From: Escherichia phage vB_VIPECOMC06
Strand: one strand, 5' to 3'
Sequence record: PQ416618.1
DNA: 64,000 bases
Within the stretch, counting starts at the first letter, position 1, and every line of letters begins with the position of its first letter. The notes beneath the pieces are model-generated. The model worked only from the letters and a program-made list of their open reading frames with translations, did not search any database and had not been told where the DNA came from. This document shows positions 4,463-15,029 of the stretch, piece by piece. Position numbers and translations under genes: made by a program.

Positions 4463-7174
4463 ATGAAAGAATTTTACTTAACGGTTGAACAGATTGGTGA
4501 TTCAATTTTTGAACGTTACATCGATTCTAATGGCCGTGAACGTACTCGTGAAGTAGAATATAAACCATCACTGTTTGCTCATTGTCCAGAAAGTCAGGCT
4601 ACGAAATATTTCGATATCTACGGTAAGCCGTGTACTCGTAAGTTGTTCGCCAATATGCGTGATGCCTCCCAATGGATTAAACGCATGGAAGATATCGGAC
4701 TTGAAGCACTTGGCATGGACGATTTCAAATTGGCGTATTTGTCTGACACTTATAACTATGAAATCAAATACGACCATACAAAAATTCGTGTGGCTAACTT
4801 CGACATCGAAGTAACATCTCCAGATGGGTTCCCTGAGCCGGCACAAGCAAAACATCCTATTGATGCTATCACCCATTATGACTCAATTGACGACAGGTTC
4901 TACGTATTTGATCTATTGAATTCTCCATATGGTAATGTAGAAGAATGGTCTATCGAAATTGCGGCTAAGCTTCAAGAACAAGGTGGTGATGAAGTTCCAT
5001 CTGAAATTATCGATAAAATCATTTATATGCCGTTCGATAACGAAAAAGAATTGTTGATGGAATATCTCAACTTCTGGCAACAGAAAACTCCTGTCATTTT
5101 GACTGGATGGAACGTTGAGTCATTTGATATTCCATATGTGTATAACCGAATCAAGAATATTTTTGGCGAATCTACTGCGAAACGTTTATCACCACATCGT
5201 AAAACTCGTGTTAAAGTTATCGAAAACATGTATGGTTCTCGTGAAATCATTACATTGTTCGGTATCTCTGTTCTTGATTACATTGACCTTTACAAAAAAT
5301 TCTCTTTTACCAATCAACCGTCATATTCCCTGGATTACATTTCAGAATTTGAATTGAACGTTGGTAAACTGAAATATGACGGCCCTATTTCTAAGCTTCG
5401 TGAAAGCAATCACCAACGATATATTTCTTATAACATTATCGACGTGTATCGTGTATTGCAAATTGATGCTAAGCGTCAGTTCATCAACTTGAGTTTGGAC
5501 ATGGGTTATTATGCTAAAATTCAGATTCAATCTGTGTTTAGCCCAATTAAAACATGGGATGCTATTATTTTTAATAGCCTTAAAGAGCAGAACAAGGTGA
5601 TTCCACAAGGTCGTTCTCATCCGGTTCAACCTTATCCTGGCGCTTTTGTTAAGGAACCTATTCCAAATCGATACAAATATGTAATGAGTTTCGACCTTAC
5701 ATCTCTGTATCCAAGTATTATTCGCCAAGTGAATATTAGCCCAGAAACAATAGCAGGAACGTTTAAAGTAGCTCCATTGCATGATTATATTAACGCTGTT
5801 GCTGAACGTCCTTCTGATGTGTACAGTTGTTCTCCTAACGGCATGATGTATTATAAAGACCGTGACGGTGTTGTTCCAACTGAAATCACTAAGGTCTTTA
5901 ATCAACGTAAAGAACATAAAGGTTACATGCTTGCAGCTCAACGTAATGGTGAAATAATTAAAGAGGCATTGCATAATCCTAATCTTTCTGTTGACGAACC
6001 ATTAGATGTTGATTATCGTTTCGACTTCAGTGATGAGATTAAAGAAAAGATTAAAAAGTTGTCTGCTAAATCTCTTAATGAAATGTTGTTTAGAGCTCAA
6101 CGTACTGAAGTTGCAGGTATGACTGCCCAAATTAACCGTAAATTGCTCATCAACTCGCTTTATGGTGCGCTTGGCAACGTTTGGTTCCGTTATTACGATT
6201 TGCGTAATGCTACTGCAATCACAACATTTGGTCAAATGGCTTTACAGTGGATTGAACGTAAAGTTAATGAATATCTGAATGAAGTTTGTGGCACAGAAGG
6301 TGAAGCTTTCGTTCTTTATGGTGATACAGACTCTATTTACGTATCTGCCGATAAAATTATCGATAAGGTTGGTGAATCTAAATTCCGTGATACCAACCAT
6401 TGGGTAGACTTCTTAGATAAGTTTGCACGTGAACGTATGGAACCAGCTATTGATAGAGGTTTCCGTGAAATGTGTGAATACATGAACAATAAACAACACT
6501 TAATGTTCATGGACCGAGAAGCTATCGCTGGGCCTCCACTCGGTTCTAAAGGTATTGGCGGATTCTGGACCGGTAAGAAACGTTATGCATTAAACGTGTG
6601 GGATATGGAAGGTACTCGTTACGCTGAGCCTAAACTCAAAATCATGGGTCTAGAGACTCAGAAATCTTCGACTCCTAAAGCAGTACAGAAAGCTCTTAAA
6701 GAATGTATTCGTCGTATGCTTCAAGAAGGTGAAGAATCATTACAAGAATATTTTAAAGAGTTTGAAAAAGAATTCCGTCAATTGAATTATATTAGCATCG
6801 CGTCGGTATCTTCTGCGAATAACATTGCTAAATATGATGTAGGTGGATTCCCTGGTCCCAAATGCCCGTTCCATATTCGTGGAATTCTGACGTATAACCG
6901 GGCTATCAAAGGTAATATCGATGCACCGCAAGTTGTAGAAGGTGAAAAAGTATATGTTCTGCCTTTACGTGAAGGAAACCCATTCGGTGATAAATGTATC
7001 GCATGGCCTTCCGGTACTGAAATCACAGATTTAATTAAAGACGACGTACTTCATTGGATGGACTACACTGTTCTCCTTGAGAAGACATTTATTAAACCAC
7101 TTGAAGGATTCACATCAGCAGCGAAACTCGAGTATGAGAAGAAAGCATCTCTGTTCGATATGTTCGATTTTTGA
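4463..7174 (+). CDS. 43: DNA polymerase gp43 (family B)
   Basis: 903 aa; exonuclease motif FDIEV, polymerase motifs YGDTDS and KKRY; N-terminus MKEFYLTVEQIGDS and length match the RB69-type polymerase as I recall it; RBS aaaggaaatt. Confidence 0.95.
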   Translation: MKEFYLTVEQIGDSIFERYIDSNGRERTREVEYKPSLFAHCPESQATKYFDIYGKPCTRKLFANMRDASQWIKRMEDIGLEALGMDDFKLAYLSDTYNYEIKYDHTKIRVANFDIEVTSPDGFPEPAQAKHPIDAITHYDSIDDRFYVFDLLNSPYGNVEEWSIEIAAKLQEQGGDEVPSEIIDKIIYMPFDNEKELLMEYLNFWQQKTPVILTGWNVESFDIPYVYNRIKNIFGESTAKRLSPHRKTRVKVIENMYGSREIITLFGISVLDYIDLYKKFSFTNQPSYSLDYISEFELNVGKLKYDGPISKLRESNHQRYISYNIIDVYRVLQIDAKRQFINLSLDMGYYAKIQIQSVFSPIKTWDAIIFNSLKEQNKVIPQGRSHPVQPYPGAFVKEPIPNRYKYVMSFDLTSLYPSIIRQVNISPETIAGTFKVAPLHDYINAVAERPSDVYSCSPNGMMYYKDRDGVVPTEITKVFNQRKEHKGYMLAAQRNGEIIKEALHNPNLSVDEPLDVDYRFDFSDEIKEKIKKLSAKSLNEMLFRAQRTEVAGMTAQINRKLLINSLYGALGNVWFRYYDLRNATAITTFGQMALQWIERKVNEYLNEVCGTEGEAFVLYGDTDSIYVSADKIIDKVGESKFRDTNHWVDFLDKFARERMEPAIDRGFREMCEYMNNKQHLMFMDREAIAGPPLGSKGIGGFWTGKKRYALNVWDMEGTRYAEPKLKIMGLETQKSSTPKAVQKALKECIRRMLQEGEESLQEYFKEFEKEFRQLNYISIASVSSANNIAKYDVGGFPGPKCPFHIRGILTYNRAIKGNIDAPQVVEGEKVYVLPLREGNPFGDKCIAWPSGTEITDLIKDDVLHWMDYTVLLEKTFIKPLEGFTSAAKLEYEKKASLFDMFDF

Positions 7175-7214: not shown

Positions 7215-7850
7215 ATGAAAACTACTCCTATTACTATCGCTATTGACGCAATCATAAAACAAGCTTCTTCTTTGGCCGCTATGGCCAAAGTAATTAGTCA
7301 AAACCCTGCTCGTTATAATGCTATTCTAGAAACTCTTCGACGCCCAGGACTTAGTAATTATGAAAGCCGAGTAATTATTACAGGTGTTGGTAAGAATGCT
7401 AATATTGCAACTAAAGCTTCTGAGACATTTGCTTCACTCGGTATCCCGAGTATGTACTTGAACACAGGGCATTATTCTCATGGTGATGCAGGATTCATTG
7501 CGCCTAATGATGTGTTGATTCATATTAGTCGTTCTGGTAAAACTGAAGAAATGATAGGTGTGGCTAAGCATCTTAAAATGATTCGTCCGAACGTCAAACA
7601 GATTCTGTTGCATTGTAACCCTGACATTCCACAAGAATACGAAGCTCTTTTTGATTATACGTTCTGTACAGGCATCGCAGTAGAGGTTGATGAGAATTCT
7701 CTGGCTCCGACCATGTCCACTACATTGTTGTTAGCGCTTATCGATACGTTTGCTATCAACCTTTCGTCTGAACGTGGATTTACCTCTAATGACTTCCTTA
7801 AGTTCCACCCTGGCGGTGCACTAGGTGCCATGTTACGAGGCGAACAATGA
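7215..7850 (+). CDS. SIS-domain sugar-phosphate isomerase, KdsD/GutQ-like (putative arabinose-5-phosphate isomerase), no CBS domains
   Basis: 211 aa; VIITGVGKNANIATKASETFASLGIPSMY...HGDAG...HISRSGKTEE and C-terminal LAPTMSTT...FLKFHPGGALG resemble the KdsD SIS domain as I recall it. Confidence 0.75.
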   Translation: MKTTPITIAIDAIIKQASSLAAMAKVISQNPARYNAILETLRRPGLSNYESRVIITGVGKNANIATKASETFASLGIPSMYLNTGHYSHGDAGFIAPNDVLIHISRSGKTEEMIGVAKHLKMIRPNVKQILLHCNPDIPQEYEALFDYTFCTGIAVEVDENSLAPTMSTTLLLALIDTFAINLSSERGFTSNDFLKFHPGGALGAMLRGEQ

Positions 7851-8031: not shown

Positions 8032-9717
8032 ATGAAAAAAGCTGTTATTCTTGGTGCTGGATTGGCAACTCGTTTGTATCCAATAACGCATCATATTCCT
8101 AAGGTGCTTGTTAACTATAAACAAGACACTATTCTGAGCAATTTGTATACAATTTATTCTGACCTTGGCGCAGATGAAATTATTGTAGTAGTTCATTCAA
8201 AATTTGCTGAAACTGTTCGAGCTTATTGTGAGCAAGAAGGGTTCAATGTGACTATTCGTACAGTTGATGAAGCGTATGGTTCTGCTTATGCTCTTGCTAA
8301 ATTACACAAAGATTTAGACGGCCATAATGTAATTGTTAACTGGTGTGATATTATTCCTGATTTCGGTTCATGGTCTTGGAATGTTAACGCAATCTATGTT
8401 AAGGGTGACGAATGTCGATATAATTTCGACGGTGAAAATATCACTAACGTAGGTTCAACAGGTGGTAATGTTGTAGGAATTTATCAGTTCAAAGACTGGG
8501 AATTCTATATGGGTTCTACTGATGAGGAAATTCATGAATACTGCAAAGGACGTGATTTCGTAGAATTCCTTTACGGCAGCGCATTCAATAAATCAGAGCT
8601 TATGAATCTAATTGATTTAGGTGATATGCCTAAACTTGAAAAAGCTCATGAAGTTCGTGAACTTAATCGTAGTTTTAATGCAGTTGAAATTGGTGAAGAA
8701 ACTGTAACTAAATTCGCATTAACCGAACAGGGCCGAGCTCTTCAGAAAGATGAGATTTCATGGTATCTTAAAGTGAAATCAGATTCAGTTCCTCAGTTAG
8801 TTTCTGTTAATGAAAATAACTTTGAAATGGAACGCATTAAAGGTAAGCCGGCATTTGAATATATTAAATCCAAATCAAGTCTTGCTCGTCCACAAATTGT
8901 TGATGCAATTTTAGACGCACTGAAATTCAGCACAGACACTTATTTTGTAAGTCCTGAAACTGTTCGTCGTGATTTCACTAAAGAATTCTATACGAAAGTT
9001 ATTGATCGTTGTGAAAGTATTCAACCATTGATTGATTCATTTGGTAAAATCACACATGTAAACTACACTAAGATTGGGCGTCTGAAGCCAATGTTGAAAC
9101 AAGCTTTAGAACACCTTATTCGTTATCATAACCGTTCTCAGGGACAGTACTCTGTTATTCATGGTGACCCGAACTTCAGTAATACTATGATTACTGATAA
9201 CGGTGAAGTCAAGTTTATCGACCCTCGTGGATATTTTGGCGAAACCAAGATTTACGGGCCAAAATTGTATGATGAAGCTAAAGTGCTTTATGCTGTTTCA
9301 GGTTATGATGAATTCAACGCTAATCCGACCTGGGGGCAGTTTACTATTGATGAAACAACTTGTAATGTGACTATTAACATCAATCCATTAGTTTACAAAT
9401 ATGGAAAGATGAGTTCGTTTAACGAGTATCATCATTTGGCAGTGGCAATTATCTGGATTGCATTAGGTGGTTATTTCAAGAATAATCCACTTAAAGCGGT
9501 AGCCGCATATTATAAAGGTATGGAACTTCTGACTAAGCAATTACGTAACATGGGCCGTGTACTTCAGGACGGCTCTATTAGTTATGACGTAGCAGAACCT
9601 GTAACGGCTACTCTGATTACAAAAAATCCTGGTAAATGGGTACTAACTGATAAAGAAACTGGTGTTTCCTATCGTCCAATCGGTGGCGATATCACTCATC
9701 AATGGGAACGAATCTAA
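8032..9717 (+). CDS. Bifunctional sugar-1-phosphate nucleotidyltransferase (N-terminal) / APH-choline-kinase-fold sugar kinase (C-terminal)
   Basis: 561 aa; N-terminal KAVILGAGLATRLYP (GxGTRL nucleotidyltransferase motif); C-terminal Brenner motif HGDPNFSNTMI and DPRG of the APH/ChoK kinase fold; RBS gagga. Confidence 0.75.
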   Translation: MKKAVILGAGLATRLYPITHHIPKVLVNYKQDTILSNLYTIYSDLGADEIIVVVHSKFAETVRAYCEQEGFNVTIRTVDEAYGSAYALAKLHKDLDGHNVIVNWCDIIPDFGSWSWNVNAIYVKGDECRYNFDGENITNVGSTGGNVVGIYQFKDWEFYMGSTDEEIHEYCKGRDFVEFLYGSAFNKSELMNLIDLGDMPKLEKAHEVRELNRSFNAVEIGEETVTKFALTEQGRALQKDEISWYLKVKSDSVPQLVSVNENNFEMERIKGKPAFEYIKSKSSLARPQIVDAILDALKFSTDTYFVSPETVRRDFTKEFYTKVIDRCESIQPLIDSFGKITHVNYTKIGRLKPMLKQALEHLIRYHNRSQGQYSVIHGDPNFSNTMITDNGEVKFIDPRGYFGETKIYGPKLYDEAKVLYAVSGYDEFNANPTWGQFTIDETTCNVTININPLVYKYGKMSSFNEYHHLAVAIIWIALGGYFKNNPLKAVAAYYKGMELLTKQLRNMGRVLQDGSISYDVAEPVTATLITKNPGKWVLTDKETGVSYRPIGGDITHQWERI

Positions 9718-10157: not shown

Positions 10158-11318
10158 ATGAATACCTTTAAAATCGGAACGAATTTTGATTTAGCTCTTC
10201 TTGATAAAATCGTAGAGCTCAATAAAACTTATCCTAATAGCTTGATAAACGAAGTATACGGCTCTACAAGAGAAATGGCTTTTGTAGCAGCCAGACCTGA
10301 TTTTAGGCTTCCTGACGTTGACAAAAAGATGTTAGAAGATTACGTTAAACGTTGTAACGAATTAGGTATTTGCTTTAACTATACACTCAACACGATAAAT
10401 CCTGGTTCAAAAAGAGAACTAGTTGAGTGGAAGAAGAAAGCTATTCAGGATTATGTTCAGTATCTTTGGTCAATAGGCGTATGGCGTATTACTATCGCTA
10501 ACCCTGTTGTTATGGAAATTGTTCGTGAAGTCAATAAAGACATTGAGATTGAAGTTTCAACAATTCTACATGTCGATGCTGTAACTCAAATCAAATACTT
10601 GCATGACCAGTATAATATCAAAAAGGTCTGCTGTGGAATTCATAAGAACCGTTCAGTTTCTTTCCTGAAGCGTGCAGCAGAGTTTTGCAATAAGAACAAT
10701 ATAATATTTGAAGTTCTTGTAAATGAGTTCTGTTCTAATGCTGGTAAAGGGTATACAACACATTGTAGTTATCGTGACTCTTGCTATATTTTCCATAGCA
10801 CCGATGTTACAGTAGATGATGCCAAATCCTTAAATGGATATCCAATGCAACACTGCATTAAAGCTCGTGATACAGACCCATTTAACTGGTTGAGAACTCG
10901 TTTTGTTCGTCCTCAAGATTTGAAACTTTATAATGATATTGGTATCACTCAATTTAAAGTTTCTGGACGTACAGGTAGCACCGACTACATTTTGAAAGTT
11001 CTTGAAGCTTATGCTTCTGAAAAGTTTGAAGGTAATTTGTTAGAACTGTGGAAGCCTTTAGAGACTATTTTCACTCTTGAAAACGAAACTGAGTTTTCAC
11101 ATACGGTAAATATTGAAACCTCTTTGTTAGATGGCTTTTTAGAAAAAAGGTGGTTCAAACATCCAGATTTCGATTGTGCTAATGAAATCTGTGGGACGAC
11201 GTGTACATATTGTGAAAGATATTATAAACGTCAGTTATCTAAAAACGGGTTATCAGAAAATTCTATATCTATTATTGATATAACTAACTCTGATGACGCT
11301 TTGAGGTACCCAGAATGA
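10158..11318 (+). CDS. Cysteine-rich hypothetical protein (386 aa), function unknown
   Basis: ATG 10158; C-terminal Cx4Cx3Cx2C cluster (CANEICGTTCTYC) plus CCG and HCSYRDSC; embedded in the sugar locus. Confidence 0.5.
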   Translation: MNTFKIGTNFDLALLDKIVELNKTYPNSLINEVYGSTREMAFVAARPDFRLPDVDKKMLEDYVKRCNELGICFNYTLNTINPGSKRELVEWKKKAIQDYVQYLWSIGVWRITIANPVVMEIVREVNKDIEIEVSTILHVDAVTQIKYLHDQYNIKKVCCGIHKNRSVSFLKRAAEFCNKNNIIFEVLVNEFCSNAGKGYTTHCSYRDSCYIFHSTDVTVDDAKSLNGYPMQHCIKARDTDPFNWLRTRFVRPQDLKLYNDIGITQFKVSGRTGSTDYILKVLEAYASEKFEGNLLELWKPLETIFTLENETEFSHTVNIETSLLDGFLEKRWFKHPDFDCANEICGTTCTYCERYYKRQLSKNGLSENSISIIDITNSDDALRYPE

Positions 11319-11550
11319 TTTCTAGAAAAACTTTTAACCACCAACTTAATGAAGAGATTTTGACTATTAAAATTAACAGCAACGAACAAATTCTTAAACA
11401 GGCCCATAAGGGCCTGTTTGAAACTAAAGCGGCTAAAGTGATTAAAGAACCTAACTAGAATACTACGCTGATGCATTTCTTCATAGTGTTCTTGGAAGTA
11501 TCGATGCCGAAGCTTTACGTTATATCAACATCGCTAAGAAATTCAAATAA

Positions 11551-11573
11551 GCTTTATGAATTGAGTATATAAT
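11551..11573 (+). promoter_or_regulatory. Candidate MotA-dependent middle promoter for gene 42 (MotA-box-like aGCTTTA, 11-nt spacer, -10 TATAAT)
   Basis: GCTTTA at 11551-11556 and TATAAT at 11568-11573, about 20 nt upstream of the gene 42 ATG. Confidence 0.3.
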
Positions 11574-11591
11574 AACTGTATTGAGGTAAAC

Positions 11592-12308
11592 ATGGGAAAA
11601 CATAACACAATGAAATATATTAAAGCCGCAGATTTTCAATCCGCATTTAAAGCAGTCAATCGTGAAATTTTAGAAAACCCGGAATTCGTAACTGATTCTC
11701 GTATTGGACGTTGTAATGAAATTGGGTCTATGACAGTAGTTGTTGACACTCCATCTTCATTCAAAATGACCGATCCACGTATTAACCGCATCTCTTATGA
11801 ATATGCTGAAGATTTCTGGAAGTTTATGATTTCTGGTGGTACTGATGCAGAAGAAGCATTTAAGGCATATCCTAACGTTGCTAAATTTATTTCTAAACCT
11901 AAATCAGACGCTTTGCCTGCAAACTTCAACACTTTCTATGGTCCACGAATTGCGGCCCAGTTACCAGCTCTTTTAAAAGAACTTAAAGAGAAACCTAACT
12001 CCCGAAGAGTTGTGTTCCAAATTCTTGAAAGTTCAGATCAGGCTTTGCTTGATTCAGACGAAACACTTGAATATCCATGTACTGACTCAGTGACTTATTA
12101 TATTCGTGATGGTAAGCTTTATACCCACTGTCATATGCGTTCACAGAACTGTGCTGTTGTTATGCAGTTGGATTTTTATCTCCAAGGAAAATTACTTCAT
12201 TATATCGCTAAAGAATGTGGTGTAGAAGTTGGTGATTATACTCATACCATGGTAAGTGCCCATGTGTTTGAACGTGATTTTGATTATGTTAAAGGATTCC
12301 TTGACTAA
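11592..12308 (+). CDS. 42: dCMP hydroxymethylase (thymidylate-synthase fold), gp42-like
   Basis: 238 aa; TS-family features (SRR motif, catalytic Cys in EYPCTD); distinct from the canonical td at 59116; position matches T4 gene 42. Confidence 0.7.
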   Translation: MGKHNTMKYIKAADFQSAFKAVNREILENPEFVTDSRIGRCNEIGSMTVVVDTPSSFKMTDPRINRISYEYAEDFWKFMISGGTDAEEAFKAYPNVAKFISKPKSDALPANFNTFYGPRIAAQLPALLKELKEKPNSRRVVFQILESSDQALLDSDETLEYPCTDSVTYYIRDGKLYTHCHMRSQNCAVVMQLDFYLQGKLLHYIAKECGVEVGDYTHTMVSAHVFERDFDYVKGFLD

Positions 12309-13207
12309 TGGCTATTTTCCGCGTACCTATCTTGAGTATGCGGTCTTATGAAACTGGACAGTATGCTATCCTTAAGGATGGCAACTTCCAACTTCATTTG
12401 CACCGTGCTAATCCAGGTGATGTGATTACATATCCACGTAATGCATCTGATATTAAAGAATGCGAACGTCTTTTCCCAGAATTTAAGTTTGTTCCATTAT
12501 GGTATAAAGATAACGCGTATAACACTCGTAAATATTTCTGGTCTGAAAATGAATTTGTGGTTGATTCATTAATTGATTATTATGATTGTGATTTTCTAAT
12601 CACAGATATCACTGGATATGACGGCGCTTTTGATGTGGAATTCAATTTCAATATCACTGCAGACCCTAATAAACCACGTTTTTATATTGACGAATTCTTA
12701 AAAACCGACATGTTGTCTGTTAATCGTTCACTTCAAACTACTGTGTTGAATGAACGTCAAAAAGAAGTGCTGGTTAACGCAGGTGCAGATGGTAATAAGA
12801 TTATCGTAACCCAGAAAGTTATACGTCCTTCCATCATGCAGCGTCTTGTAGGTGATTTGGCTCCTATTCATCTAGATGGTATTTTTCATCCATTTCGAAT
12901 TAGTGACCCATGCTATCGTTTTGAACAAGTGGTTGAATGCGCAATTCAATTAGGCCAACCGCTTTATATAACCGATCCAAATAATAGCTTCGACAGAAAT
13001 AAGTATCCTGAAGAAGCGCTGATTCGAATTTTTAATCCAACTAAAACTGAGTACTATCAAATTCTTAAAGGACGTCCGAAGATTCAATATTTCGAAAATC
13101 CTGAAGAAGTATTCCATCCAGGTCTTGGTGAGTTCATCTACTTTAATGCTTTAATTTCTTCGCCGTATAATATACCTAAATATGAAGATGTCGTAATCGA
13201 GGAATAA
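12308..13207 (+). CDS. Hypothetical protein (299 aa) occupying the T4 beta-gt position
   Basis: TAATG-coupled to gene 42; no motif I can assign. Confidence 0.5.
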   Translation: MAIFRVPILSMRSYETGQYAILKDGNFQLHLHRANPGDVITYPRNASDIKECERLFPEFKFVPLWYKDNAYNTRKYFWSENEFVVDSLIDYYDCDFLITDITGYDGAFDVEFNFNITADPNKPRFYIDEFLKTDMLSVNRSLQTTVLNERQKEVLVNAGADGNKIIVTQKVIRPSIMQRLVGDLAPIHLDGIFHPFRISDPCYRFEQVVECAIQLGQPLYITDPNNSFDRNKYPEEALIRIFNPTKTEYYQILKGRPKIQYFENPEEVFHPGLGEFIYFNALISSPYNIPKYEDVVIEE

Positions 13208-13208
13208 A

Positions 13209-13757
13209 ATGGCTAAAATTATTTTAGTAGATGGCCCGGATAATGCCGGTAAAACAACTTTCATTAATGACATAATGGAAATTAGTGAAAGATATGTAAA
13301 GATTGATTTCCCTAAACGAACAGTTGATGGACGTTTCGATGTTAAGTCTCGAAATGAAGTTGGCTGTTTCGAAACGATGTTGAATTATTTAGACCCTACT
13401 AAGATTTATCTGTTAGACCGTGGATATATTAGTAACTGGGTTTATGGACGTATTCGACAAGATGCGGACTCGGTTCTTGACGTTTATGAACAGGATTATG
13501 TTCGTCTTTGCCAAAACCATGATGTGTTCACAATTATTTTAACACGTAACGAAATGACTGAAAGTTTTGAAGACGACCTTATTACTTTGTCTTCATTCGG
13601 TTTTAATACAGTCATTTCATATTTTGAAGAGTTTGCAATTCATAACAAAATTCAAACGTATCAATTACTTAATCATGATGGTGCTAACAAAGTTATAGGA
13701 TTTAATGCAAGCGAACGTAATAATTTGATTACAGAAATTATCAAATGGGCTCGTTAA
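13209..13757 (+). CDS. P-loop nucleotide/nucleoside-monophosphate kinase-like protein
   Basis: 182 aa; Walker A GPDNAGKTT near the N-terminus; translationally coupled to the upstream ORF. Confidence 0.5.
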   Translation: MAKIILVDGPDNAGKTTFINDIMEISERYVKIDFPKRTVDGRFDVKSRNEVGCFETMLNYLDPTKIYLLDRGYISNWVYGRIRQDADSVLDVYEQDYVRLCQNHDVFTIILTRNEMTESFEDDLITLSSFGFNTVISYFEEFAIHNKIQTYQLLNHDGANKVIGFNASERNNLITEIIKWAR

Positions 13758-13856: not shown

Positions 13857-15029
13857 ATGTCTGATTTAAAATCTCGTCTGATTAAAGCTTCTACTTCTAA
13901 AATGACTGCAGACTTGACTAAGTCTAAGCTGTTTAATAATCGTGATGAAGTCCCTACTCGTATTCCGATGTTGAATATTGCATTAGGTGGTGCACTGAAT
14001 GCCGGGTTGCAATCAGGCTTAACTATTTTTGCTGCTCCTTCTAAACACTTTAAAACGTTGTTTGGACTGACCATGGTTGCAGCGTATATGAAGAAATATA
14101 AAGATGCAATTTGTTTGTTCTATGATTCAGAATTTGGTGCTTCAGAATCTTATTTTCGTTCAATGGGTGTTGATTTAGACCGTGTAGTTCATACCCCGAT
14201 TCAATCTGTCGAACAACTTAAAGTTGATATGACTAATCAGCTTGACGCGATTGAACGCGGTGATAAAGTTATTATCTTTATCGATTCAATCGGTAATACT
14301 GCATCTAAGAAAGAAACCGAAGATGCGTTGAACGAGAAAGTTGTAGGTGATATGTCTCGTGCTAAGGCACTTAAATCTCTGTTCCGCATTGTGACTCCTT
14401 ATCTGACTATTAAAGATATTCCATGTGTTGCAATCAACCACACAGCAATGGAAATCGGCGGACTATATCCTAAAGAGATTATGGGTGGTGGTACAGGTAT
14501 TCTTTACTCTGCTAACACTGTGTTCTTTATCTCTAAACGTCAGGTTAAAGAAGGTACAGAATTGACTGGTTATGACTTCACACTGAAAGCAGAAAAATCT
14601 CGTACAGTTAAAGAGAAATCTACTTTCCCGATCACGGTTAATTTTGATGGCGGTATTGACCCATTCAGTGGCTTGTTAGAAATGGCAACTGAAATTGGTT
14701 TTGTAGTTAAGCCTAAAGCTGGTTGGTATGCTCGCGAATTCCTTGACGAAGAAACAGGCGAAATGATTCGTGAAGAAAAATCATGGCGTGCTAAAGCTAC
14801 TGATTGTGTAGAATTCTGGGGGCCGTTGTTTAAACATAAGCCTTTCCGTGACGCAATTGAAACTAAATATAAACTAGGTGCTATCTCTTCTATTAAAGAA
14901 GTTGATGATGCTGTTAACGACCTTATTAATTGCAAAGCAACAACTAAAGTTCCGGTTAAAACTTCTGATGCTCCGTCTGCAGCAGATATAGAAAACGACC
15001 TTGACGAAATGGAAGATTTCGATGAATAA
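13857..15029 (+). CDS. uvsX: Recombinase UvsX (RecA-like)
   Basis: 390 aa; RecA core with acidic C-terminal tail; N-terminus MSDLKSRLIKASTSK matches T-even UvsX. Confidence 0.95.
   Translation: MSDLKSRLIKASTSKMTADLTKSKLFNNRDEVPTRIPMLNIALGGALNAGLQSGLTIFAAPSKHFKTLFGLTMVAAYMKKYKDAICLFYDSEFGASESYFRSMGVDLDRVVHTPIQSVEQLKVDMTNQLDAIERGDKVIIFIDSIGNTASKKETEDALNEKVVGDMSRAKALKSLFRIVTPYLTIKDIPCVAINHTAMEIGGLYPKEIMGGGTGILYSANTVFFISKRQVKEGTELTGYDFTLKAEKSRTVKEKSTFPITVNFDGGIDPFSGLLEMATEIGFVVKPKAGWYAREFLDEETGEMIREEKSWRAKATDCVEFWGPLFKHKPFRDAIETKYKLGAISSIKEVDDAVNDLINCKATTKVPVKTSDAPSAADIENDLDEMEDFDE

Follow-up and report, generated by a model that had tools for sequence, protein, structure and literature searches.

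U32 proteins that have been characterised are hydroxylation factors (PMC10990095, PMC6599085, PMC5727448), in which a [4Fe-4S] cluster is held by four cysteines (PMC6747719). In E. coli, RlhA (YdcP) is the 5-hydroxycytidine C2501 synthase of 23S rRNA; its product is a C5-hydroxylated cytosine, and the reaction requires prephenate and iron-sulphur (Fe-S) cluster biogenesis (PMC5727448). TrhP (YegQ) and TrhO both form 5-hydroxyuridine at position 34 of tRNA (ho5U34), the former by an O2-free, prephenate-requiring U32 route and the latter as an unrelated O2-dependent enzyme (PMC6599085). Similarly, UbiU and UbiV, which are Fe-S proteins of the U32 family and work as a heterodimer on the aromatic ring of a lipid, replace the flavin monooxygenases UbiI/H/F without O2 (PMC6747719, PMC10990095), with prephenate as the demonstrated oxygen donor (PMC10990095). 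A second line of work concerns phage RB69, the DNA of which contains arabinosylated 5-hydroxycytosine (5hoC) rather than hydroxymethylcytosine (Lee et al., NAR 2026, PMC13326640). Its thymidylate-synthase (TS) homolog, gp48, converts dCMP to 5-hydroxy-dCMP (5hodCMP) with O2, as shown by 18O2 labelling, and flavin (PMC13326640). Here we describe a U32 gene that lies beside the corresponding TS homolog in a 64,000-nt stretch of Escherichia phage vB_VIPECOMC06 (PQ416618.1; hereafter the window, to which all coordinates refer), an RB69-like T4-type phage (Mosigvirus). We consider it rather probable that the U32 protein is a prephenate-dependent, O2-independent dCMP C5-hydroxylase and the anaerobic counterpart of the TS homolog. 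The gene and its recognisable parts are as follows.

10158..11318, + strand: U32-family protein gene (386-aa open reading frame (ORF), ATG start; ortholog of RB69 gp50, ORF050c)
10437..11015, + strand: Peptidase_U32 Pfam domain (residues 94-286), part of the TIM barrel (PF01136; hhalign to RlhA)
10731..10856, + strand: mid-domain cysteine set C192-x10-C203-x5-C209-x23-C233, with the U32 signature HCSYRDSCYIFHS (conservation; RlhA alignment)
11175..11213, + strand: C-terminal cysteine set C340-x4-C345-x3-C349-x2-C352 (conservation; no TrhP or UbiU equivalent)

The protein matches PF01136 (Peptidase_U32) at 42.4 bits against a gathering cutoff of 22.4, and PHROG 5757 with an E value of 2e-266, which overturns the view of an earlier note on this DNA that no family match was obvious. 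An AlphaFold2 model (pLDDT 93.8) has 5d88 as its top fold match and the TIM-barrel fold of the U32 family. The hhalign probabilities against the four E. coli paralogs are 83.6% for RlhA (over residues 53-285 of the phage protein), 14% for TrhP, 5% for UbiU and 0.3% for UbiV, and a 237-sequence profile scores 47.8 bits with TrhP, 45.5 with RlhA, 29.4 with UbiU and 1.0 with UbiV; the nearest of the four are the RNA pyrimidine C5-hydroxylases RlhA and TrhP. Mk0906 (PDB 5d88), the only crystallised U32 protein, shares 14% identity with the phage protein, has 247 aa and lacks the C-terminal cysteine cluster. Sequence and profile searches against PDB sequences gave no meaningful match and did not reach 5d88; the lone weak match, BIM1, looks spurious.

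RlhA has the U32 TIM barrel and a two-cysteine signature in common with the phage protein: in the hhalign alignment, HCSYRDSCYIFHS is aligned with the RlhA signature LCVAYSGQCYISHA, and HCSYRDSCY stands opposite LCVAYSGQCY. However, RlhA is a 653-aa protein with a DUF3656 domain that acts on ribosomal RNA, and TrhP acts on a tRNA uridine and carries a Peptidase_U32_C domain, whereas a Pfam scan of the 386 aa of the phage protein found PF01136 alone, with neither Peptidase_U32_C (PF16325) nor DUF3656 and hence no RNA-binding extension of the RlhA kind; the substrate proposed for it is a deoxynucleotide. No RlhA or TrhP equivalog was matched in NCBIfam, the UbiU model there scored 19.4 bits against a cutoff of 440, and similarity to UbiU is weak and to UbiV absent. 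Unlike the UbiU/UbiV plus UbiT arrangement, the cluster contains no second U32 gene and no SCP2 gene (ORF list and Pfam). These sequence comparisons place the phage protein in a distinct U32 subfamily, for the most part viral, that lies outside every characterised one.

Thirteen cysteines are present (residues 66, 72, 158, 159, 177, 192, 203, 209, 233, 340, 345, 349 and 352), and cysteine makes up 3.4% of the protein, the top value among the 48 window ORFs of at least 150 aa (median 1.1%); this richness is more than chance. The earlier note was right to call the ORF cysteine-rich and to single out a Cx4Cx3Cx2C cluster (CANEICGTTCTYC, at residue 340), CCG (158) and HCSYRDSC (202). Conservation was scored over 237 homologs, down to <45% identity, and eight conserved cysteines fall into two sets of four. 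In the mid-domain set, C192, C203 and C233 are near-invariant and position 209 is Cys or His. In the C-terminal set, C340, C345, C349 and C352 are each at least 87% conserved when the more distant homologs are included, and are invariant in 90/90 homologs of at least 45% identity. By contrast, cysteines 66, 72, 159 and 177 are confined to particular lineages. The mid-domain residues C192, C203, C209 and C233 are probable [4Fe-4S] ligands, although their spacing (CX10CX5CX23C) is unlike the CX6CX15CX3C motif of RlhA and TrhP, and the additional C-terminal set (CX4CX3CX2C) is a probable second metal site, Fe-S or Zn. Because U32 membership is combined with two conserved four-cysteine sets, the metal centre (Zn or Fe-S) suggested in the earlier note is plausible, and would most likely be Fe-S.

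The gene has 98% nucleotide identity with RB69 ORF050c, and its product is 99-100% identical in amino acid sequence to those of many Mosigvirus records, HY126 and Bas46 among them; RB69 gp50, Bas46_0144, HY126 XAN60477 and PHROG 5757 are direct orthologs (98-100% aa identity) whose published labels differ from the function proposed here. Codon differences are 24 synonymous and 2 nonsynonymous from HY126, and 22 and 2 from Bas46; such an excess of synonymous changes means that the gene is under purifying selection.

The U32 gene belongs to a cassette, all on one strand, between the genes for DNA polymerase gp43 (4463-7174) and UvsX (13857-15029), with the following neighbours.

7215..7850, + strand: SIS-domain arabinose-5-phosphate isomerase of the uridine diphosphate (UDP)-arabinose pathway, RB69 gp55 ortholog (Pfam; PMC13326640)
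8032..9717, + strand: bifunctional NTP-transferase/kinase, AfhE-like, RB69 gp52:53 (Pfam; PMC13326640)
9702..10103, + strand: HAD-like phosphatase, AfhF-like, RB69 gp51 (position, PMC13326640; no Pfam match)
11315..11458, + strand: 47-aa ORF in the chorismate mutase slot (frameshifted copy of a 79-aa Mosigvirus ORF)
11592..12308, + strand: TS homolog, RB69 gp48 ortholog (Pfam Thymidylat_synt; PMC13326640)
12308..13207, + strand: putative DNA arabinosyltransferase 1, RB69 gp46:47 (PMC13326640 Table 1; no Pfam match)
13209..13757, + strand: thymidylate-kinase-like nucleotide kinase, RB69 gp45 (PMC13326640 Table 1)

The TS homolog, the gene for which starts about 270 bp downstream of the U32 gene, is 98.7% identical in amino acid sequence to the HY126 enzyme and is by orthology an O2- and flavin-dependent 5hodCMP synthase. 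The earlier note had wrongly taken it for a hydroxymethylase, dCMP C5-hydroxylation having been established for RB69 gp48 (PMC13326640); labels of dCMP hydroxymethylase or thymidylate synthase are also found in many GenBank records. The ORFs at 8032-9717 (561 aa) and 12308-13207 (299 aa) are intact here and split in the RB69 GenBank record (ORF052/053 and ORF046/047), in agreement with the statement of Lee et al. that the splits are sequencing errors (PMC13326640). Promoter and terminator scans did not rise above the chance level.

The product of chorismate mutase is prephenate, and the gene for this enzyme comes directly after the U32 gene in most of the other genera of T4-like phages. In Enterobacter phage Entb_45, the 79-aa gene between the U32 gene and the TS homolog matches Pfam CM_2 at 40.9 bits (cutoff 27). 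By tblastn, this gene was found in 56 records of phages with hosts of about 15 genera, where it always adjoins the U32 gene or the TS homolog, and four more divergent copies score above the Pfam cutoff. Residues R8, R25, K36, E49, S71 and Q75 are invariant and are spaced like the AroQ catalytic residues, as assigned in E. coli chorismate mutase. In Shewanella phage Thanatos-1 (locus L015, 1-3240), the order is TS homolog, glycosyltransferase, kinase, U32 and chorismate mutase, unlike that in enterobacterial phages; the U32 and chorismate mutase genes are still paired there, though moved off from the TS homolog. The published pentose modification of Thanatos cytosine probably also begins from 5hoC; the U32 gene was not analysed in the Thanatos paper.

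A similar association recurs in unrelated large phages. A scan of IMG/VR for U32 loci returned 50, of which 16 were T4-like, with the TS homolog in 16/16 and chorismate mutase in the slot in 14/16. In the 34 non-T4-like loci, located on contigs of up to 294 kb, the U32 proteins show 34-55% identity and the 5hodCMP-type TS homolog is found in none (0/34), yet CM_2 lies near the U32 gene in 13/34, all confirmed by Pfam, and takes the form of a 107-aa gene immediately downstream, of an 84-aa gene upstream or of a fusion to 3-deoxy-D-arabino-heptulosonate 7-phosphate (DAHP) synthase. DAHP synthase is the entry enzyme of the shikimate pathway. The fusions adjoin U32 in four IMG/VR loci from large uncultivated phages (L048 4411-5430, L051 4336-5373, L052 4353-5384 and L062 7100-8194). 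Among 106 de-duplicated nearest neighbours, DAHP synthase (7) and CM_2 (6) are the commonest families, followed by Pol III alpha, RecA, dCMP deaminase, thymidylate kinase, dUTPase and uracil-DNA glycosylase (UDG). Gene contexts in metagenome assemblies give the same picture, with dCMP deaminase, thymidylate kinase, UDG, NT5C, dNK and guanylate kinase as neighbours.

Two further arrangements were seen. A recurring module (L002 5135-9098; L003; L019 5314-8077; L020/L021 4251-8056) is composed, in order, of a PF17338 (GP88) protein, a methyltransferase or guanylate-kinase protein, a conserved protein of about 265 aa without a Pfam match (47% identity between L002 and L020) and U32 as the final gene. 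In L002, U32 is followed by NT5C, a nicotinamide mononucleotide (NMN) transporter, dNK, a radical SAM protein, a second U32-like protein and a nucleoside deoxyribosyltransferase, and this type of module may be a nucleoside or nucleotide modification system of a new kind. On a very large (466-kb) phage-like contig from the Joint Genome Institute (JGI; L001, 1-9939) with a DnaE-type polymerase, U32 comes after dCMP deaminase, and genes for thymidylate kinase, UDG and a radical SAM/SPASM protein are close by. Another nearby protein, of 402 aa, has a weak glycosyltransferase-like match (QTMAN_N, E 5e-4), and this context hints at another hydroxylated or glycosylated DNA base.

The most likely model is that the U32 protein would transfer a hydroxyl group from prephenate to C5 of a pyrimidine deoxynucleotide without O2, which in this phage would be the conversion of dCMP to 5hodCMP. 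The O2- and flavin-dependent TS homolog would then provide the aerobic route and the U32 protein the anaerobic one, following the same logic as TrhP/TrhO and UbiUV/UbiIHF. As with UbiI/H/F, the aerobic enzyme of the phage is flavin-dependent (PMC13326640). TrhP and TrhO are encoded by unlinked genes in E. coli, whereas the phage pair lies in one operon and would feed DNA synthesis. In RB69-like phages, prephenate would be supplied by host PheA/TyrA. Prephenate demand would be large, the number of cytosines in an RB69-size genome (167,560 bp, about 37.5% G+C) being roughly estimated at 6 x 10^4, and the carriage of a phage-encoded, presumably unregulated chorismate mutase makes sense for this reason.

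Five other explanations were weighed one by one, and on that evidence the sugar-enzyme, flavin-reductase, RNA-hydroxylase and protease readings were rejected. The fifth shares the chemistry and differs in the target: the U32 protein might be a prephenate-dependent hydroxylase of cytosine in DNA, dCTP, dUMP or another nucleotide position. The family, cysteine and chorismate mutase evidence fits such a target as well, RlhA and TrhP work on polymers, and the large phages, in which the 5hodCMP-type TS homolog is missing and U32 adjoins dCMP deaminase, dUTPase and thymidylate kinase, could thus have dUMP or another compound as the substrate. On the other hand, the protein has no nucleic-acid-binding extension, its neighbours are mononucleotide enzymes, and 5hoC, the only C5-hydroxylated base known in T4-like phages, is made at the dCMP level (PMC13326640). 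We regard a target other than dCMP as unlikely.

The role implied by labels in current database records and papers is that of a sugar-branch enzyme, such as a reductase or epimerase, with arabinose-phosphate or UDP-arabinose as its substrate. Within the cassette, the gene is placed between those for the HAD phosphatase and the TS homolog; Bas46_0144 is annotated as a "putative enzyme involved in UDP-arabinose biosynthesis"; RB69p050 is entered in a table as "Sugar or heterocycle reductase" from a 5d88 match, with no experiment or discussion (PMC13326640); and the Durham collection paper counts an "epimerase" among the cluster genes without analysing the U32 gene. However, the isomerase, the bifunctional kinase/pyrophosphorylase and the HAD phosphatase are credited with UDP-arabinose (PMC13326640), and AfhE and AfhF account for its formation in HY126, according to the citation given by Lee et al. 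(PMC13326640). Moreover, the U32 gene is not present wherever the pathway operates. In the cluster of Acinetobacter phage Lazarus, the isomerase, NTP-transferase/kinase and HAD genes are followed directly by the TS homolog, and DNA of DLP3, a phage of the same genus, carries tri-arabinosyl-5hoC (PMC13326640). U32 is also missing from the clusters of E. coli phage JS98 and Pseudomonas phage PspYZU05, which retain sugar genes. The JS98 cluster (Dhakavirus; L008 3476-8589) contains a TS homolog, AfhE-like, HAD, kinase and glycosyltransferase genes, with no U32, chorismate mutase or SIS isomerase, and as a minimal cluster that occurs naturally it makes a useful comparison for oxygen dependence. 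Among the 106 neighbours in other phages, where prephenate and nucleotide genes adjoin the distant homologs, only two NTP_transferase proteins and one GLF protein relate to sugar nucleotides. Since Lazarusvirus keeps the sugar genes without U32, gene content indicates that the U32 protein is not a step of the sugar pathway and is dispensable for arabinosylation. To our knowledge, no U32 member acts on sugars. Thus, of the role in sugar or base modification, by epimerisation or redox chemistry, that the earlier note had suggested, base modification and redox chemistry accord with the hydroxylase favoured here, and the sugar step and epimerisation do not; a sugar-branch enzyme is distinctly improbable.

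We judge improbable to the same degree that the protein is an Fe-S electron-transfer partner, such as a flavin reductase, that serves the TS homolog and does not itself hydroxylate. Two putative metal clusters, the reduced flavin required by the TS homolog (PMC13326640) and the "heterocycle reductase" half of the label of Lee et al. would suit this role, but RB69 gp48 is active in E. coli without gp50 (PMC13326640), Acinetobacter phages have no U32, and neither the linkage to chorismate mutase and DAHP synthase nor the occurrence of U32 in phages lacking the TS homolog would be explained. We know of no precedent for electron transfer in the U32 family.

T4-like phages encode tRNAs, and the best E. 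coli matches of the protein are TrhP and RlhA; a phage RNA hydroxylase acting on tRNA or rRNA during infection is nevertheless very unlikely, given that the C-terminal domains of TrhP and RlhA and their NCBIfam equivalogs are not matched, that in Straboviridae U32 is restricted to phages with the 5hodCMP-synthase cluster and always lies within it, and that elsewhere its neighbours are DNA-precursor enzymes. Finally, the family name and many GenBank labels ("peptidase", "putative protease", "collagenase-like protease") would make the protein a peptidase or a collagenase, which is hardly credible, because the label is historical, the characterised members are those hydroxylation factors described above, the conserved features are cysteine clusters and the context is nucleotide and prephenate metabolism.

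Several observations weigh against an anaerobic dCMP hydroxylase. No chorismate mutase was found by tblastn anywhere in the window, and other RB69-like phages likewise lack it. The ORF in the corresponding slot appears to be decaying in these phages: the gap at 11315-11592 contains the 47-aa ORF and apparently non-coding sequence, the HY126 copy of the 79-aa ORF carries a different frameshift from the window copy, and neither the 47-aa ORF nor the intact 79-aa Bas46 version has chorismate mutase similarity (Pfam, BLASTP). The frameshifted ORF could reflect a decaying gene or variable sequencing. The partner chorismate mutase has been lost in RB69-like phages, the window included, with U32 strictly conserved; it follows that prephenate would have to come from host PheA/TyrA. 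If each cytosine cost one prephenate, the burden on metabolism would be heavy. The mid-domain cysteine spacing, CX10CX5CX23C, also differs from the canonical CX6CX15CX3/4C (PMC6747719), and alignment to the canonical ligands is clear for C203 and C209 only; UbiU and UbiV depart from the canonical motif as well (PMC6747719).

The distribution of the genes gives further reason for caution. The TS homolog occurs in 373 phage-database records, including 57 Acinetobacter and 20 Rhizobium phages, and the U32 gene in 221, the hosts of which all belong to Enterobacterales or Shewanella; this pattern of aerobic versus facultatively anaerobic hosts represents few independent lineages and is confounded by phylogeny. 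JS98-type E. coli phages keep the TS homolog without U32, so the U32 gene is accessory. Hydroxylation in vitro has yet to be demonstrated for any U32 protein (PMC10990095), and the case is built on sequence, a structural model and gene context, as is what is said of the DNA chemistry of the non-T4-like phages. A transposon-mutagenesis preprint on LC53 and Bas46 holds no essentiality data for the gene. Lee et al. name RNA pyrimidine hydroxylation pathways in their discussion and draw no tie to gp50 (PMC13326640), and in the full-text literature covered no phage U32 protein is tied to hydroxycytosine or chorismate mutase; this coverage excludes He et al. (Nat Chem Biol 2026) and Mahler et al. 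(Cell Host Microbe 2025), which may have tested the gene.

The U32 protein is not categorically new, as both the ORF and the superfamily were known. The viral subfamily with its variant cysteine motif and extra cluster, the DNA-precursor substrate class and the pairing with prephenate genes appear to be undescribed in the searchable literature. It is tempting to generalise that 5hoC DNA has been founded by two routes, one through the TS homolog and the other through U32 and prephenate, often with a phage chorismate mutase or DAHP-synthase-chorismate-mutase fusion, and that in many uncultivated large phages without the TS homolog U32 would be the sole pyrimidine hydroxylase, founding hydroxylated or glycosylated DNA bases of new kinds; we offer this tentatively, as a proposition a little short of evenly balanced.

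The published route to 5hoC needs O2, whereas the hosts in gut and sediment are often anoxic, and the U32 gene is a possible answer to this difficulty: with an anaerobic route, DNA containing arabinosyl-5-hydroxycytosine could be made in the gut and other anoxic niches by phages that infect facultative anaerobes. If this is correct, no U32 enzyme before the phage protein would have had a small, soluble substrate, and the shikimate pathway would for the first time be connected with DNA hydroxylation. Reconstitution of U32 hydroxylases in vitro has never been achieved, since they act on ribosomes, tRNAs or lipids, and a U32 protein acting on dCMP would be a tractable model for the chemistry of prephenate-dependent hydroxylation. 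The annotations "peptidase" and "UDP-arabinose enzyme" would be corrected, and the carriage of chorismate mutase and DAHP synthase genes by phages would be explained. Therapeutic phages with and without the U32 gene would be expected to differ in restriction evasion in an oxygen-dependent manner. More broadly, these observations point to unexplored DNA modifications in the large phages of anaerobes.

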